Positions 2,501-36,432 of a stretch of 64,000 nt of DNA are shown piece by piece. Position 1 is the first letter of the stretch, and each line of letters opens with the position of its first letter. Where the stretch lies: the sequence record PZ452579.1. The stretch is one strand, 5' to 3'. A program made the position numbers and the translations under genes. Source of the DNA: a phage. The notes beneath the pieces were generated by a model. The model was not told the DNA's origin. It made no database searches and saw only the letters and a list, made by a program, of their open reading frames with translations.

Positions 2501-2794
2501 TCAACTGTAACGATAACATTCGTTAGCTTTACGTTTGGCTTCAGTATGAGAAGTATTATAATCATAATCTTCTTTACTGTAAACATCTTTTTTCAACTTA
2601 CGAACTTCTTTGCGGAGTTGTCGATTCATTTCATTCTTGACTTCAGAATCAACGCCTTTCATACGTTTCCATTTATCTGAGCGGAAAATGTTTTCAACCA
2701 TGTCTTTGTGGCTAACACCGTCAGGAGCTTTACGCTTACCAAAATAGTCGTAATCGCGAACTTTCAAATCTTTACGACGATATGTTTTACCCAT
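2501..2794 (-). CDS. hypothetical basic protein (97 aa)
   Basis: Start at MGKTYRRKDLK... with SD GAGG; Lys/Arg-rich. Confidence 0.55.
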   Translation of the reverse strand: MGKTYRRKDLKVRDYDYFGKRKAPDGVSHKDMVENIFRSDKWKRMKGVDSEVKNEMNRQLRKEVRKLKKDVYSKEDYDYNTSHTEAKRKANECYRYS

Positions 2795-2801
2795 AAGTAC
2801 C

Positions 2802-3050
2802 TCAGAGGTTGATTGATACAATGCGTTTGATAAAATTCACTTCACTTACTGAAAGGTCTTTAAGACCGATTGATTCTAAACGCTGAGTAAGCGTCAACAT
2901 CGGGATATAGTCCCAATGTGTTTTAGACGTTTGATAAGTACGGACGCCATTAGCAATTTCAACATGCAAATCGGAAATGGTAACGAATACCGGTCGCTCG
3001 TCATTAACTTTAAGGGTTAGAACAACTTTCTTTGAATCTAAACTAATCAT
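2802..3050 (-). CDS. hypothetical protein (82 aa)
   Basis: ORF with SD AAGGA; ATGA overlap with upstream gene. Confidence 0.55.
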   Translation of the reverse strand: MISLDSKKVVLTLKVNDERPVFVTISDLHVEIANGVRTYQTSKTHWDYIPMLTLTQRLESIGLKDLSVSEVNFIKRIVSINL

Positions 3051-3229
3051 GACTTAATTTCCTTCGCAATTGAACAGAAGATACCACGGTCACAAAGCAT
3101 TTCGCCAATTTCTGGATATTTGATTGAACGGTACCAAACATCCAGGCTTGAAACTCTGGTTATCTGTACTGCATTACCGTTGACAGAATAGTACTGGTCA
3201 ACCTTAATTTCTTTATCTTCAATTGTCAT
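3047..3229 (-). CDS. hypothetical protein (60 aa)
   Basis: ORF with SD AGGA 8 nt upstream. Confidence 0.5.
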   Translation of the reverse strand: MTIEDKEIKVDQYYSVNGNAVQITRVSSLDVWYRSIKYPEIGEMLCDRGIFCSIAKEIKS

Positions 3230-3360
3230 TTTTATTTTCCTCTATAGTAGATGGTTTAATCTTAACACATCTATTGAGGATGTAAACTGTTTTATGAAAA
3301 TATTTTTGATTTGAGAGTGGCACAAGGAGATAGTGAAGTGAAGATTCCAATGGATTATAT

Positions 3361-3397
3361 TAGAAATGGGATAAAGAAGACCAGGCGGCACCTGGTC
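3361..3397 (-). terminator. hairpin GACCAGG-n5-CCTGGTC followed by U-rich tract
   Basis: Immediately after stop of glutaredoxin-like gene on minus strand. Confidence 0.45.
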
Positions 3398-3719
3398 AAT
3401 CTTCTATGATATCAGAGTCATATCCTAATGAAATCAAGGACTTTTTAAACTCTGCAATATTCTTTTGTTTCTTATCATTTAAAAATATGACAGGATAACG
3501 AATATTAAGTGAAGTGAATCCTGCACGTTTAGCAAGAGATACGATTAAAGGACGGTCATATTCAATCTTACCATTATTAGTGAGGACTTTATAAAATGTA
3601 TAAGGAGCGTTGAGCTCCTTTAAAAGTTTTGTAACAGTATAACATCCTGGACAACGTCCAACTTCTTCAGGGATGCCATAGATTTCAATCTTGTTCTTTA
3701 AGTTCGAGTTTTGTTCCAC
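3396..3719 (-). CDS. NrdH-like glutaredoxin (CPGC active site)
   Basis: IEIYGIPEEVGRCPGCY... redoxin motif; only in-frame start near domain is GTG with AGGA upstream; N-terminal part of track ORF overlaps neighbour. Confidence 0.55.
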   Translation of the reverse strand: MEQNSNLKNKIEIYGIPEEVGRCPGCYTVTKLLKELNAPYTFYKVLTNNGKIEYDRPLIVSLAKRAGFTSLNIRYPVIFLNDKKQKNIAEFKKSLISLGYDSDIIED

Positions 3720-4220: not shown

Positions 4221-4330
4221 ATTTACCCTTAATTAACTAAGCATTGATAAGCACTAAACTATATTGCGAATAAAATTCTGGACCAAAATGAAAAATCATA
4301 TCATTTATAGTATCCATAATGTAATTCAAT

Positions 4331-4801
4331 TTAATCATGTTTCCACACCCCATCGGTATTTGACCAAAGTCTCTGATTATCTGATCCTCGCCACAGTTTT
4401 TTGGTCGGAAGATTTTTCTCATACTTCCCATCAATAATAACATCAACATATTTAAGCATTTCTAGTTGTTTAATATCTTCAAACTTATATCCTGTCCACA
4501 ACCAAATGCTTTTATTGGGATAAAGATTTTTTACTGTTTGAACAATGCAATGAATGACGTCTCGATTGTCAGGATAGAGAGGGTCTCCTCCGGTTATAGT
4601 CAATCCTTCTATATAATCATTATTCAAATATTCAATCAATTGTTCTAGTGTTTCACCGGTGAATGGAATACCATTTCTAGCATTCCATGTTGATTTATTA
4701 TAACACCCTTCGCATTTATGCAAACAACCTGTAACGAAAAGAACGACCCTGCAACCAGGGCCATTCACAAAATCGCAAGGATAAAATCTATCATAATTCA
4801 T
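4331..4801 (-). CDS. nrdG: anaerobic ribonucleotide reductase activating protein (radical SAM)
   Basis: CxxxCxxC motif (CLHKCEGC) near N-terminus; 156 aa; directly downstream of nrdD with 4-nt overlap. Confidence 0.9.
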   Translation of the reverse strand: MNYDRFYPCDFVNGPGCRVVLFVTGCLHKCEGCYNKSTWNARNGIPFTGETLEQLIEYLNNDYIEGLTITGGDPLYPDNRDVIHCIVQTVKNLYPNKSIWLWTGYKFEDIKQLEMLKYVDVIIDGKYEKNLPTKKLWRGSDNQRLWSNTDGVWKHD

Positions 4802-22339: not shown

Positions 22340-22879
22340 TCATTGCATTCCAATCACAAAAAATTGAGGACGAGCATTACCGCCGATGCAATATTTGCTT
22401 TTGCAGCAGTGCTGTAATGTTTTAATGTGGACGTTGTAAATCTTATCCATATCAGGAGCTTTAATAGGCTCGTCAATTATATACAGAATACGAGAAAGCG
22501 TTAATCCACGGAATTTAGAACCTTCATTGCCAATAAAACTACGAACAGAATCAGTAAATAAACGGAATCGAATATCATCGCTAGAATAACGAGAAAATTC
22601 TTTTTCAATGTTGCCAGCAGAAATTTTAGCATAAGCTGAAGTATTAGAAAGAACAATAACTGTTCCGCCATCATACAACCAATTAGCAGCAAAGTTAGTC
22701 ACAGCAATTGATTTACCGGATTGACGTCCACCGTCTAAACGAAGTGTACAGTACTGTTTGAGTACGTCTTCAAACGGTGGGATATAACCATTCTTACAAA
22801 TTTCTTCTACTCTAGCATCAGAATGGTGTGTAAAAGCATTCATCAGGGATAGATAAGGACCAGTTAAAAATGTTCTCAT
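22340..22879 (-). CDS. P-loop-containing protein (GGRQSGKS)
   Basis: Walker-A-like motif; 179 aa; weak SD. Confidence 0.5.
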   Translation of the reverse strand: MRTFLTGPYLSLMNAFTHHSDARVEEICKNGYIPPFEDVLKQYCTLRLDGGRQSGKSIAVTNFAANWLYDGGTVIVLSNTSAYAKISAGNIEKEFSRYSSDDIRFRLFTDSVRSFIGNEGSKFRGLTLSRILYIIDEPIKAPDMDKIYNVHIKTLQHCCKSKYCIGGNARPQFFVIGMQ

Positions 22880-23052
22880 TTAGTTTCTCTTTTAGGTTGG
22901 GGCCATTCCGTGGCACATGTTAGGTCCTTCGACTCGCTATGTAAACCCATTACCGCATTGCGCTCGACCTTATTACAGGTTGGAAAAGGTACATCACTCA
23001 GAGGACTCGACGTTCATGAGGAGAGGTTGCGTTTCCCTTTATTAGGCAAGAA

Positions 23053-23382
23053 TTATACTCTAGGCTTTTGAGCTTGTTTGGTATTGGATTCCCATGCGGC
23101 TTTGGTAATTTTGTTAGCGGCATAACCAAAGGCATTAGATAGAACACCTTTAGAGTTGAATACATCCAATCCAATAAGTACACCGGCTGTGTTAAATTTA
23201 GGAGCAAAGTACGCATTAGTTTTAGAAAGAGCTTTTTTCAATTCAGGGTCTTGAACCAAGCCATCAAAAACGCCTTTACTATTTACTTTATATGTTACTT
23301 TGGGATTTTTACCTTCTTCGATAGCAGCTTTCTGTTCCGCAGATAATGTAACTTCAGTGATAAACTCTTGATACGTTTTCAT
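23053..23382 (-). CDS. internal-protein-like, capsid-targeting leader MKTYQEFITE
   Basis: N-terminal 10 aa match T4 IP capsid-targeting sequence; SD AGGA. Confidence 0.7.
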   Translation of the reverse strand: MKTYQEFITEVTLSAEQKAAIEEGKNPKVTYKVNSKGVFDGLVQDPELKKALSKTNAYFAPKFNTAGVLIGLDVFNSKGVLSNAFGYAANKITKAAWESNTKQAQKPRV

Positions 23383-23407
23383 TTTGTTCCTATTGTTTTA
23401 ATTTATG

Positions 23408-23722
23408 TTATTCTTTAGGGAAGTTTTTAGAGTATGCGTCATAAAGTTTATTACCGATGCGACGGAAGACTTTAGCTGCAAAACGGTTTTCAGGGTTTTT
23501 AATCATGATTTGCATCATGTAAGTTCCTGCATCCGAAAGAGCTTCTTCGTAGTACCCATTAATTTCTTTAAGAGTCCTACGTTTACCACCAGGACCATCA
23601 ACAGTAATTTTCCATTTACCTGTAGAAGTGCGGCTCGGTGGCTCAACTTGTTCAATCCAAATATAACCACCTTCAACGCGTTGGTTGGCGGATTCTGCAA
23701 TAAATTCTTTATATGTTTTCAT
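23408..23722 (-). CDS. internal-protein-like, leader MKTYKEFIAE
   Basis: Leader matches T4 IP consensus; 104 aa. Confidence 0.7.
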   Translation of the reverse strand: MKTYKEFIAESANQRVEGGYIWIEQVEPPSRTSTGKWKITVDGPGGKRRTLKEINGYYEEALSDAGTYMMQIMIKNPENRFAAKVFRRIGNKLYDAYSKNFPKE

Positions 23723-23753
23723 TTTTTGTTTCCTTGTTTGTTTTGATAGAGTA

Positions 23754-23783
23754 ATTATACCATATTAATACTTAAGCGTAAAC
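23754..23783 (-). promoter_or_regulatory. early promoter cassette (-35 GTTTAC, 18 nt, -10 TATAAT)
   Basis: Minus strand upstream of 23408..23722. Confidence 0.55.
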
Positions 23784-23786
23784 AAT

Positions 23787-24047
23787 TTAAGCTTTACCGC
23801 CAGAAATAATTCCGAAGTTGTTAAAATCGTATCCAATATCGTCAACATCTACTTTAGGACTTACTACAACATAAGCAATTTCACTACGTTTTGCATAGGT
23901 GTTGATTTCTTTACCATCGCCACCTAAGAAAGAATACCCATTACGTTTTAATGAGCCAAAGTCTTCCGCATCACCAATGAAAGCTTTAACTTTAAATTTG
24001 GGGTCTTTGGCATCTGCTTCAGCTATAAATTCTTGATACATTTTCAT
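23787..24047 (-). CDS. internal-protein-like, leader MKMYQEFIAE
   Basis: Leader matches T4 IP consensus; 86 aa. Confidence 0.7.
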   Translation of the reverse strand: MKMYQEFIAEADAKDPKFKVKAFIGDAEDFGSLKRNGYSFLGGDGKEINTYAKRSEIAYVVVSPKVDVDDIGYDFNNFGIISGGKA

Positions 24048-24053
24048 TTTTCC

Positions 24054-24467
24054 TTAGTAAATTGATTTACCATAGTATTTGTACCAAGTCGGACGTTGAG
24101 CAATTTTTTCATCTAAGCGTGCTTGACTTATCGCAATGGACGCTTCGGACGGGACGTAATTATTACGAAATTCTACAGGGATGTCGGAAATATCCTGGAC
24201 AGTCGTGTCCTTGATTTTGAAACCACGTTTCAAACATTCGGCGATTAGCTCGATTTGTCGTAAACGTAAAAATTCAAGTTTGTCGTAAAAGAATGTTACG
24301 TGACCTGTGCCTAAGATAAATGTTGGAGAGATTTTAAAATCCTTTACACGTTTACCGTTTTGAACATGTTTACGGACTGCACCAAATACGCGTGGTAATT
24401 CACGATACTCAGCCATAAGATGTTGGTCGGTCAGTTCAGAAACAAGTGTTAAATTGATACGGGTCAT
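24054..24467 (-). CDS. denV: endonuclease V (pyrimidine dimer DNA glycosylase)
   Basis: 137 aa from [33 protein letters not shown]...; matches recalled T4 DenV. Confidence 0.9.
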
Positions 24468-24494
24468 AATTTCCTCCAAGTAGTTGATGAATGT

Positions 24495-24524
24495 ATAGTA
24501 TCAAAACCCTTGGAGGAAGTAAAC
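24495..24524 (-). promoter_or_regulatory. early promoter cassette (-35 GTTTAC; -10 TACTAT-like)
   Basis: Minus strand upstream of denV. Confidence 0.5.
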
Positions 24525-24525
24525 A

Positions 24526-24807
24526 CTATTTTTCTGAAGCGCCTGAAATATATTTTTCAAGTCGTTGCTTCATTAGCGAGCCGTTCTTAGCGATTTCTTC
24601 CGGTTTATCGCACATACGTAACAAGGCTTCAAGCTTAGCGATATCGCTGGTACGTTCAAATTTGCGAGTATCTATCTTACTAGCAAGTTCAGAAATACGT
24701 GCTAATAGACTTTCGGCTTCAACCAAAGCTGCACCTAGCTTAGTTGCAAATGTGTCAGTAGCTTCGTTAAGAATAGATTCTGATAAAAATTCACTATATG
24801 TTTTCAT
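24526..24807 (-). CDS. internal-protein-like, leader [10 protein letters not shown]
   Basis: ATG overlaps lysozyme stop (ATGA); leader matches IP consensus. Confidence 0.65.
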
Positions 24808-25292
24808 ATATACGCTTTCCAAGTTCCTGTTTTAAATGTTGAGATTACGCGTTTCGCGCGATTAGGTGTCTGACGATACCATTTAGATTGGGCTAGATTT
24901 ACTGCCGCCTCGTCCCAACGTTTCTGTTGAAGCATACGAAGAGAATTAGTAAAACCGGCGACGCCTGCTACACCCATTTGGAAGACCATATTGACCAATG
25001 CACATCGACGAACCGCATCTAAAGAATCATATACCGGTTTAAGTTTAGCATTACCCAAGATTCCGCGAACGGCTTTATCAACGTCTTCATTAAATAGCTT
25101 TTCAGCCTCATCAAGGGTAATTGTACCGTTGCATTTACGTCCGATCATTCTGTCAAGTTCAGCTTTAGCTACGGCTAAAGACGGGTTCTTTGTTACTAAA
25201 TGGCCTATGCCAATCGTCCAAAAGCCTTCAGTGTCTTTGTATAAAGTCAGTCTAAGACCTTCGTCATTACGAAGCATTTCAAATATATTCAT
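24804..25292 (-). CDS. e: lysozyme (endolysin)
   Basis: 162 aa from [31 protein letters not shown]...; matches recalled T4 lysozyme; SD GGAGG. Confidence 0.9.
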
Positions 25293-25326
25293 AATACCTC
25301 CCACGTTTATAGGAGGTATTTATTAC

Positions 25327-25785
25327 TTATAGGAGGGTAGTGAGCACCTTATATAATGATTTGCCCATTACATATTCCCATTGAGAAGGTTTAATTAAAG
25401 CGAATGCATCAAATTCAGGAATCTGTCGTCCGTCTGGGAATGTATGATAGGAATTACAAACACTGTTTCTGAATTGCTCGTGCTCTACAGGGATGGTATA
25501 TTGGAACAGATGAATATTCTTATTGTCTGAGTAATGATGTTCACCTAGGTCTTTCAGGAAGGCAGGGTCATATTGTGTAAACCCAGTTTCTTCTTCGCAT
25601 TCACGAATAGCGGCTTCAATAGGAGATTCGCCAGGTTCGACACGGCCTTTAGGAATATCCCACCGATGAGCTAATGCACCTTTAGGACGAGAACCAGTTA
25701 CACGCCCCATGAATAATTCTTTATCTTCGGTAAGGAAAATAATACCGGCTGATAGTTCTTTCACTTTATTTTTCTTACTCATCAT
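25327..25785 (-). CDS. nudE: Nudix hydrolase
   Basis: Nudix box GRVEPGESPIEAAIRECEEETG; 152 aa; T4 e.1 position. Confidence 0.8.
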   Translation of the reverse strand: MMSKKNKVKELSAGIIFLTEDKELFMGRVTGSRPKGALAHRWDIPKGRVEPGESPIEAAIRECEEETGFTQYDPAFLKDLGEHHYSDNKNIHLFQYTIPVEHEQFRNSVCNSYHTFPDGRQIPEFDAFALIKPSQWEYVMGKSLYKVLTTLL

Positions 25786-32778: not shown

Positions 32779-33342
32779 TTATTTACCTAGTTTAGTTATT
32801 ATAGCTTCGGCAGCAGCTTTTAGCTTAGATGCAGTGTTAATACGATTTTTAATTTCAGTATACGCATCGCCAAGAACATCAAGGCTATCAGAATAAACAC
32901 TTACACTATTGCGTTCGCTATTTGAAATAGAACCTTTAGTTTTACGATCAAAATCAGTGTACACGTCTTGAAGATCACGGGCTGCCTTCTTTGCATCATC
33001 CAATGCATCAAGAGCTTTATTCAAAGCATTGACATATTTTTTAGTGTCAAACATATTCTTAGAAATTTTAACAGGTGCACGTTCAGGAGTAGCTAAGGCG
33101 GATTTAGGAACCTGCGTGCCAGATGCCAGTTTCTTAGAAATTTTGAAAAACGCTTTATTGAAACTATTTTCTTGTCTCATCGTAAAAGAACTAGTATCGA
33201 TGTTATACATTTCAATAGCTTTAGCTTTCCACTTAAGAAAATCGCCGCGGTCTTTTGGATCCAAGTGGAAGAATACTTTAGTAAGATCTGCTTCAGATGG
33301 TAATTTTGCTGCTTCGGTTAAAAATTCGGCATAGGTTTTCAT
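32779..33342 (-). CDS. internal-protein-like (187 aa), leader MKTYAEFLTE
   Basis: Leader matches T4 IP consensus; Lys/Ala-rich helical body. Confidence 0.7.
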   Translation of the reverse strand: MKTYAEFLTEAAKLPSEADLTKVFFHLDPKDRGDFLKWKAKAIEMYNIDTSSFTMRQENSFNKAFFKISKKLASGTQVPKSALATPERAPVKISKNMFDTKKYVNALNKALDALDDAKKAARDLQDVYTDFDRKTKGSISNSERNSVSVYSDSLDVLGDAYTEIKNRINTASKLKAAAEAIITKLGK

Positions 33343-34134: not shown

Positions 34135-34211
<77 letters not shown>

Positions 34212-34217
34212 AATATA

Positions 34218-34291
34218 TGACCCAGACCAGATTCGAACTGGTAACCTTTCCCTTATGAGGGGACTGCTGCTAACCATTGAGCTACAGGGCC
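34218..34291 (-). tRNA. tRNA with CAU anticodon (Ile2-like or Met)
   Basis: 5' end and T-arm resemble E. coli tRNA-Ile2; anticodon loop CTCATAA; imperfect acceptor and D stems. Confidence 0.55.
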
Positions 34292-35795: not shown

Positions 35796-36059
35796 TTATT
35801 TCAAATATATTGCGTATTTTTTATAGCCACCAGGCTCGTGTCGAAGACCTTTATCATTCGCAAAACGTTGAATGTTATTGAACTGATTTTCATCAAGTTC
35901 GGATGTGTCAAATATAAAAAAGTTTCGTTTGTTACCAAGCGTGATATGCGGAGTTAAGTCAATGTTATACAAATTAAGAATATCAGCAATAACCTGATTG
36001 ACTGCTTTGTTAATTTTCACACCAGACGATTCTGAGATGAATTCGTTGAAAGTTTTCAT
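35796..36059 (-). CDS. internal-protein-like, leader MKTFNEFISE
   Basis: Start at second ATG; leader is a variant of IP consensus. Confidence 0.6.
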   Translation of the reverse strand: MKTFNEFISESSGVKINKAVNQVIADILNLYNIDLTPHITLGNKRNFFIFDTSELDENQFNNIQRFANDKGLRHEPGGYKKYAIYLK

Positions 36060-36091
36060 TTTAGGTTCCATTTGGTTGTTTTGATAGGACT

Positions 36092-36121
36092 ACTATAACA
36101 TAGTCCTACCATGATGTAAAC
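36092..36121 (-). promoter_or_regulatory. early promoter cassette (PeSL-like)
   Basis: -35 GTTTAC, 18 nt, -10 TATAGT; dyad TAGGACTA/TAGTCCTA. Confidence 0.55.
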
Positions 36122-36432
36122 TATTTTATGCCTTTAGATGAAATAGTATTCTGGCGTTTGACCCCAGTTTGTGAAAAATCATGGTTATCAATTTGGTCAA
36201 CTCGCATAACACCAAACGCAGATTTAATTTTGGCCTTTGAACCTTTTTTGATACTAATTACCATATAAGTATCATTTTTCTTATATTCGAAATTTGATAC
36301 TTCAACGCCTTGATTAGAAATTGACTTAATAATAGCATTAGCGTATTCATCATCTAACGGGCCGTTAGTGTTAATAACAAAATTTTTATCCGCTTTAGTA
36401 GCTTCCGCGATGAATTCTTGATAGGTTTTCAT
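36121..36432 (-). CDS. internal-protein-like (ipI position), leader MKTYQEFIAE
   Basis: Exact T4 IP leader; 103 aa; adjacent to 57B as ipI is in T4. Confidence 0.7.
   Translation of the reverse strand: MKTYQEFIAEATKADKNFVINTNGPLDDEYANAIIKSISNQGVEVSNFEYKKNDTYMVISIKKGSKAKIKSAFGVMRVDQIDNHDFSQTGVKRQNTISSKGIK

Follow-up and report, generated by a model that had tools for sequence, protein, structure and literature searches.

What do the four small open reading frames (ORFs) around the denV gene of the phage sequence PZ452579.1 encode? The window, meaning the whole 64,000-nt stretch of this record that was analysed and to which coordinates refer, carries at 22.3-25.8 kb a set of genes that all lie on the minus strand, in the order nudE, e, IP-a, denV, IP-b, IP-c, IP-d and vs.8. 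All four IP ORFs open with MK(T/M)YxEF(I/L)xE, as a first-pass annotation of this DNA had reported, and reanalysis confirmed both the pattern and the positions, on the minus strand. Taken as a whole, the best explanation, which is probably though by no means certainly correct, is that the four genes encode internal proteins (IPs) of the T4 type. The genes are as follows.

IP-a, 24526..24807, minus strand: 93 amino acids (aa); equivalent to RB69ORF127c.
IP-b, 23787..24047, minus strand: 86 aa; leader MKMYQEFIAE; equivalent to RB69ORF125c.
IP-c, 23408..23722, minus strand: 104 aa; leader MKTYKEFIAE; full-length form of RB69ORF124c, Ip10 family.
IP-d, 23053..23382, minus strand: 109 aa; leader MKTYQEFITE; equivalent to RB69ORF123c, an orphan family.

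The leader carries the first part of the argument. In the six-frame translation of the window, the strict motif MK[TM]Y.EF[IL].E was matched 6 times against an expectation of 4.7e-6, and 200 shuffles gave 0 matches. A looser pattern retrieves seven ORFs, the seventh with F at position 4. In all seven the motif begins at the first ATG, and in 6 of 7 an AGGA/GGAA Shine-Dalgarno sequence lies 3-8 nt upstream of that ATG, the exception being IP-a, whose ATG overlaps the e stop. Published leader rules assign capsid targeting to Y4 and F7 and processing to I/L8 and E10 (PMC9026906). M1, K2, Y4, E6 and F7 are present in all four window IPs, and the predicted sites for gp21 cleavage, which span positions 8-10 and precede a small residue, read FLSE/S, FIAE/A, FIAE/S and FITE/V. 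Across 83 leader-bearing ORFs with 53 distinct leaders, the consensus is M-K-T-Y-[QNK]-E-F-[IL]-[TA]-E-[AS], with E10 in 51 of the 53, and the four window leaders fit it.

Is this leader translated as a peptide? Among homologs its codons vary synonymously (ACA/ACT/ACC/ACG, TAT/TAC, GAA/GAG, ATT/ATC/CTC/TTA) and the peptide is unchanged. Because homologs differ at synonymous sites with the peptide kept, the leader is translated and selected as a peptide and not as DNA. Judged from the sequence, translation of each IP begins at the MKTY-type ATG; the first-pass annotation had allowed that the true starts might lie downstream of the MKTY codons, a possibility that this synonymous variation contradicts. 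Codon 3 of IP-b is a second ATG, from which a shorter ORF is annotated in some records. Since its homologs in phage SP18 and in the surveyed locus L021 begin MKTYQEFITE, the first ATG is taken as the ancestral IP-b start.

The relatives of this phage bear on whether the leader is functional. The window belongs to Mosigvirus: its 2.6-kb locus matches 842 phage records, 80 of which cover at least 80% of it, and the best 40 of these are 97.3-98.5% identical to it, with RB69 at 97.6%. RB69 and about 80 Mosigvirus genomes carry the same four genes in the same order (ORF127c, 125c, 124c, 123c), and RefSeq labels RB69 ORF127c and ORF125c 'internal head protein'. The RB69 record nevertheless differs from the window inside these genes (coordinates of L001). 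A 1-nt insertion truncates ORF124c (3151-3423), and a -1/+1 frameshift pair scrambles the ORF127c leader to MKTYMNFYQN (4226-4507), both genes being intact in the window; ORF123c (2753-3082) has Ala in place of Glu10, which the window keeps. With the divided 187-aa gene described below, four genes of this kind differ, and the differences may be sequencing errors made in 2003, when the record was produced, or genuine decay of a laboratory stock.

That three of these genes are frameshifted or have a damaged leader in the RB69 record, together with a literature search that found no direct virion evidence, could be taken to mean that the leader is a likeness without packaging and that the products are ordinary early cytoplasmic proteins or non-functional remnants. 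This is highly improbable, because the leader match lies far beyond chance, the leader peptide is conserved over unrelated bodies and across genera, the first 10 residues in T4 package foreign proteins by themselves (PMC9026906), and the window and most relatives carry undamaged ORFs. By analogy with T4, the four proteins are instead very likely packaged and gp21-processed. The window ends at genes 17-19, short of gene 21 for the prohead protease gp21, and RB69 encodes genes 20, 67, 68, 21, 22 and 23 just beyond that point, including those of the scaffolding core (gp22, gp67 and gp68).

Within the locus, conservation is restricted to the leader, at the amino-acid level. With the mature body defined as residue 11 to the end, pairwise BLAST of the four bodies gave no significant similarity, either to each other or to T4 IPI, IPII and IPIII; in this alignment to the T4 proteins, which the first-pass annotation had recommended, the leader is shared and the bodies are not. 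When the 83 leader-bearing ORFs were stripped of their first 10 residues, they fell into 17 BLAST families, with IP-a, IP-b, IP-c and IP-d in four separate ones, and all-against-all hhalign of the leaderless family alignments gave a probability of at most 6.5% for any pair. The mutual unrelatedness of the bodies noticed earlier is thus borne out by BLAST and profiles for all four proteins, and by predicted fold for IP-c and IP-d.

Two protein clusters seem to say otherwise. IP-c and IP-d both match phrog_3966 over their full length, whether or not the leader is removed, and IP-b and the ORF at 36121 both match phrog_2667, also without the leader. Paralogy of IP-c and IP-d was considered and rejected, given a BLAST E=0.96, a leaderless hhalign probability below 1% and different AlphaFold2 (AF2) topologies. 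Because the leaderless profiles are unrelated, phrog_3966 and phrog_2667 are read as clusters merged via the shared leader, and phrog_3966 is fold-discordant as well. Leader-merged PHROGs of this kind could mislead automated annotation.

The position of the genes gives the second part of the argument. All four fall within the e-to-vs.8 interval, one before denV and three after it, and are framed by these genes:

nudE, 25327-25785, minus strand: NUDIX by Pfam.
e, 24804..25292, minus strand: T4-type lysozyme (Pfam Phage_lysozyme, E=7.5e-14), syntenic with e of RB69 and T4.
denV, 24054..24467, minus strand: endonuclease V, a pyrimidine-dimer glycosylase (Pfam Pyr_excise, E=3e-14).
vs.8, 22340-22879, minus strand: the flank beyond IP-d.

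The denV gene is 77-91% identical to denV of T4, SP18, PSD9 and CC31 and forms a conserved anchor rather than being one of the internal-protein genes. At 24804-24807 the TGA stop of e overlaps the start codon of IP-a in the sequence ATGA, a junction that the first-pass annotation had described correctly, and IP-b starts 6 nt past the denV stop. For the four small ORFs themselves, Pfam, NCBIfam and PADLOC gave no meaningful matches.

How closely does this resemble T4? T4 IPII and IPIII occupy the same interval on the same strand, carry the same 10-residue leader (both MKTYQEFIAE) and have a matching predicted gp21 site after Glu10, and the mature size of IPII, about 10 kDa, is matched by the window proteins. 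The T4 order e-ipIII-ipII-denV-vs.8 was verified, in line with the earlier statement that T4 has two such genes between denV and e. The window differs in that its bodies are non-homologous to those of T4, it has four genes to T4's two, and three of its genes lie downstream of denV; its e-to-vs.8 locus has no member of the size of IPIII (20 kDa). The description of the locus as expanded and rearranged holds for the four genes and for the three beyond denV, but it does not mark the window as unusual, since RB69 has the same four genes, about 80 records match at least 80% of the locus and 21 of 29 surveyed loci also have leader-bearing genes beyond denV.

That survey covered 80 denV loci from IMG/VR, 29 of which are T4-like with e and vs.8 flanks. 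The numbers of loci with 0, 1, 2, 3 and 4 leader-bearing ORFs, among these 29, were:

Whole e-to-vs.8 interval: 1, 7, 9, 9 and 3 loci.
From e to denV: 4, 19, 6, 0 and 0 loci.
From denV to vs.8: 8, 11, 8, 2 and 0 loci.

Leader-bearing genes between denV and vs.8 are thus present in 21 of the 29, and at least 15 unrelated body families occur across the e-to-vs.8 interval of these loci. The marine and jumbo-phage denV loci of the IMG/VR set had no leader-bearing ORF in the interval. Individual genomes differ in the same way: SP18 reads e-denV-Ip10-IP-IP-vs.8, PSD9 reads e-ipIII-denV-(IP-d-like)-IP-vs.8, CC31 reads e-IP-denV-(Ip10-like)-vs.8, and from e to vs.8 Mosigvirus phi25-307 carries six internal-protein genes. 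Because both the survey and the individual genomes vary, three IPs beyond denV count as a common arrangement, with T4 as one of many variants.

The slot right after e holds six different body families. Even so, 19 of 25 loci have an IP start codon that overlaps the last bases of e, by 14 nt in 16 loci (L011, L013, L016, L017, L020, L021, L023, L024, L028, L030, L032, L033, L035-L037 and L042) and by 4 nt (ATGA) in three Mosigvirus-type loci. In the 14-nt overlap, the first four leader codons (ATGAAAAC.TATAA) share bases with the last codons and the stop of e. At this junction the lysozyme C-terminus and the leader are encoded by the same bases, and six body families follow. A separate observation concerns L027 (4929-5378), whose leader-bearing protein of 149 aa joins an additional N-terminal domain to a C-terminal domain like that of Ip10.

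Does the window hold more such genes? Seven candidate internal-protein genes were found in it, not four, and the three additional ones are:

36121..36432, minus strand: leader ORF of 103 aa, MKTYQEFIAE; adjoins 57B; equivalent to RB69p156 and in the BLAST family of SP18 gp122 (denV locus).
35796..36059, minus strand: leader ORF of 87 aa, MKTFNEFISE; in the slot of the T4-like ipI in RB69; phrog_7673 'internal head protein'.
32779..33342, minus strand: leader ORF of 187 aa, MKTYAEFLTE; uninterrupted in the window, but divided into ORF148c/149c in the RB69 record (L005 1929-2491).

The two 57B-adjacent ORFs, 36121-36432 and 35796-36059, occupy the T4 ipI position. A T4 IPI homolog, as reported for RB69, was sought in the window and is absent: at the ipI slot (window 35796-36071 versus RB69 L005 4950-5249), RB69 has a T4-like IPI and the window has an unrelated 87-aa body in the same MEPKMKT context. 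With the two phages about 98% identical elsewhere, this difference looks like a cassette swap. Body families are also shared across the two Ip loci, e-denV-vs.8 and the 57B-tRNA region, since the 36121 ORF resembles SP18 gp122 from the denV locus and IP-a has homologs at the ipI locus, so that bodies appear to move between the two. The locus is an arms-race hotspot in which the leader and the flanking genes e, denV and vs.8 stay in place and the bodies behind the leader are swapped as cassettes.

Much of this was already known. Polymorphic Ip loci were reportedly described by Repoila et al. in 1994 and by Comeau et al. in 2007. Hypervariable internal-protein loci with capsid-targeting sequences are textbook T4 biology (PMC3012670, PMC9026906), and the four genes represent a known class, T4-type internal proteins, at a known hotspot in a known phage lineage, without a new principle. 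Only mildly new are the leader damage and frameshifts in the RB69 record and the IP-d (ORF123c) family, which is labelled as an internal protein in none of the records examined.

The four proteins differ in charge, spread and predicted fold. Record counts were obtained by tblastn of the mature bodies against a phage collection. Predicted mature IP-a has 83 aa, 9.2 kDa and an isoelectric point (pI) of 6.3, and IP-a matches phrog_3499 'internal head protein' (E=2e-46). Of the 497 phage records in which it occurs, 258 fall below 60% identity; these, among the matches listed, are mostly of Tequatrovirus type at the ipI locus. Predicted mature IP-b has 76 aa, 8.2 kDa and a pI of 5.2, and is found in 218 phage records. 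Predicted mature IP-c has 94 aa, 10.8 kDa and a pI of 9.6, and its 190 records include Enterobacter phages and CC31. Predicted mature IP-d has 99 aa, 10.7 kDa and a pI of 9.7, and is found in 91 records.

IP-c can be named. Over the full length it shares 71-72% identity with Ip10 of Shigella phage SP18 (E=1e-40 to 2e-44), and IP-a, IP-b and IP-d had no match to Ip10. Ip10, known from phage Pol and annotated in SP18, has no known target and carries the same leader as IP-c; it lies directly after denV in SP18, whereas IP-c is the second gene after denV in the window. The AF2 model of IP-c (predicted local distance difference test score, pLDDT, 84; predicted template modelling score, pTM, 0.75), built on a shallow alignment of 10 sequences, has the order beta-beta-beta-alpha-beta-beta (E-E-E-H-E-E), and a fold search of the PDB and BFVD gave nothing convincing beyond its own family.

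IP-d has the most isolated family. Its AF2 model (pLDDT 75, pTM 0.59), from an alignment of 4 sequences and only moderately reliable, predicts a helix and a small beta-rich domain in the order H-E-H-E-E-E-H-E. A search for remote homologs among 1.84 billion protein representatives returned only its own two clusters and three weak multi-stretch matches to long proteins. In the rows listed, 24 of 25 relatives are called 'hypothetical protein' and one 'RNA polymerase ADP-ribosylase'.

The basic pI of IP-c and IP-d (9.6-9.7) would suit a mainly structural role, in which internal proteins act as DNA counter-ions or as core components that help to assemble the head, pack the DNA or eject it, and have no specific target in the host. 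T4 internal proteins, present at about 360 copies each, do make lysine contacts to DNA, and loss of IPIII increases polyheads (PMC3012670, PMC9026906). IP-a and IP-b, however, are not basic, and T4 internal proteins are non-essential for growth (PMC9026906). A generic role also leaves unexplained at least 17 unrelated families, 0-6 genes per locus and swaps between near-identical phages, and it is accordingly a quite unlikely account of the four genes.

What, then, would internal proteins of the T4 type do for this phage? As in T4, the leader would dock each protein onto the scaffolding core of the prohead, gp21 would cut after Glu10 (I/L-x-E) to leave mature proteins of 8-11 kDa, and these would stay in the head with the DNA and be ejected into the cell at infection. 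Docking, gp21 cleavage, head retention and ejection with the DNA are described for T4 (PMC9026906, PMC3012670). By analogy, each mature protein may bind and block one host nuclease that cuts the incoming arabinosylated DNA, before phage gene expression.

Precedents for this last step exist at both Ip loci. T4 Ip1, Ip2 and Ip3 each inhibit a distinct GmrSD, without cross-protection (PMC12373910); T4 IPIII is needed to infect ECOR17 and works leaderless when expressed in the host (PMC9391042); and Bas37_0260, a leader-bearing protein of the ipI locus, inhibits McrBC (bioRxiv 10.1101/2025.11.20.689424). On the side of the target, Mosigvirus DNA contains arabinosylated cytosines, and BrxU, an enzyme of the GmrSD family, cleaves it (PMC13390438), and RB69 is restricted by GmrSD enzymes (PMC6024577). 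Ip1 (IPI*), Ip2, Ip3 and Bas37_0260 share with the window IPs the leader-dependent delivery route, small size, the two Ip hotspots and phage DNA that is a type IV substrate; they differ in bodies without sequence similarity, and inhibition by the window proteins is putative. The injected anti-defence reading, which the first-pass annotation had put forward, is already published (PMC12373910; bioRxiv 10.1101/2025.11.20.689424) and, by analogy, plausible for these proteins. The odds that the four include at least one inhibitor of a type IV restriction enzyme may be put at about even.

Several observations weigh against the interpretation as T4-type internal proteins with an anti-restriction role. 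BLAST, tblastn and profile searches gave no match of the four bodies to Ip1, Ip2, Ip3 or Bas37_0260 beyond the leader, and because no body is homologous to a proven inhibitor, function is not transferable by homology. The ip4-ip10 set, to which the named IP-c homolog Ip10 belongs, did not reproducibly inhibit the active GmrSD variants tested (Silas et al.). No Mosigvirus virion proteomics was found in the literature searched, and no canonical late promoter (TATAAATA) lies near the four genes, so that their expression at prohead assembly is putative. Unless they are record errors, the damaged RB69 leaders may also indicate that the laboratory phage tolerates loss of a working leader.

The proteins could also be packaged and injected and yet aim at something other than type IV enzymes, such as other first-response defences, RecBCD-like nucleases or host take-over, as with the co-packaged Alt ADP-ribosyltransferase. 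This is an unlikely reading. Inhibition of restriction by T4-type internal proteins retains its interest because such proteins arrive with the DNA and act before phage gene expression, which makes them a first-line counter-defence. The examples characterised so far are all inhibitors of type IV restriction enzymes, each of a different one. We know of no inhibitor-enzyme pair for arabinosylated phage DNA. It is possible, if rather doubtful, that one or more of the bodies is the first inhibitor specific for a restriction enzyme of arabinosylated-5-hydroxycytosine DNA, or an inhibitor of a non-type-IV defence. The strongest candidate for such an inhibitor is IP-d, given its two-cluster family and near-uniform hypothetical annotation; if this is true, the inhibitor would have a fold absent from the PDB. 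The seven window proteins are sensible candidates for an anti-restriction screen and for host-range engineering in phage therapy.

The possibility that IP-a is related to the McrBC inhibitor Bas37_0260 was considered and rejected, since the IP-a homolog is the neighbouring Bas37_0261, a Tequatrovirus protein 47% identical to IP-a, and not 0260. Bas37_0261 directly adjoins the inhibitor gene (L092, phage Bas37 / KarlGJung, 2864-3121 and 2554-2787), and its leader is longer and of the T4-IPI type (MKTFKEFATKTTITE).

Some elements between the genes may relate to cassette structure and expression. Several modules are flanked by early-promoter-like elements with stem-loops, which would resemble the promoter-stem-loop cassettes of T4-type phages (PMC2839356). 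Two elements stand out:

23754..23782, minus strand: candidate sigma-70 early-promoter-like site upstream of IP-c (TTTACG, 17 nt, TG-TATAAT; 10/12 matches, extended -10 TG).
24471..24518, minus strand: perfect 10-bp inverted repeat (TTCCTCCAAG / CTTGGAGGAA; arms 24471-24480 / 24509-24518) that encloses a GTTTAC...TACTAT promoter-like stretch.

Sigma-70-like sites are no more numerous in the region than in shuffles, so the site at 23754..23782 is only a candidate. One arm of the inverted repeat contains the denV Shine-Dalgarno sequence. A second, perfect 9-bp inverted repeat (AATACCTCC / GGAGGTATT, 25293-25301 / 25312-25320) lies at the 5' end of e and takes in its Shine-Dalgarno sequence. It resembles the hairpin that blocks early translation of T4 lysozyme. 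IP-d and vs.8 are separated by a 173-nt gap (22880-23052) that has no ORF on the gene strand and contains a GTTTAC promoter-like site; the gap matched no Rfam family and no tRNA, and its folding is worse than that of shuffles (z=+1.76). Elsewhere in the window, two tRNA genes, Arg-UCU and Met-CAU, lie at 34135-34291 on the minus strand and match the two of RB69, where T4 has eight in the region.

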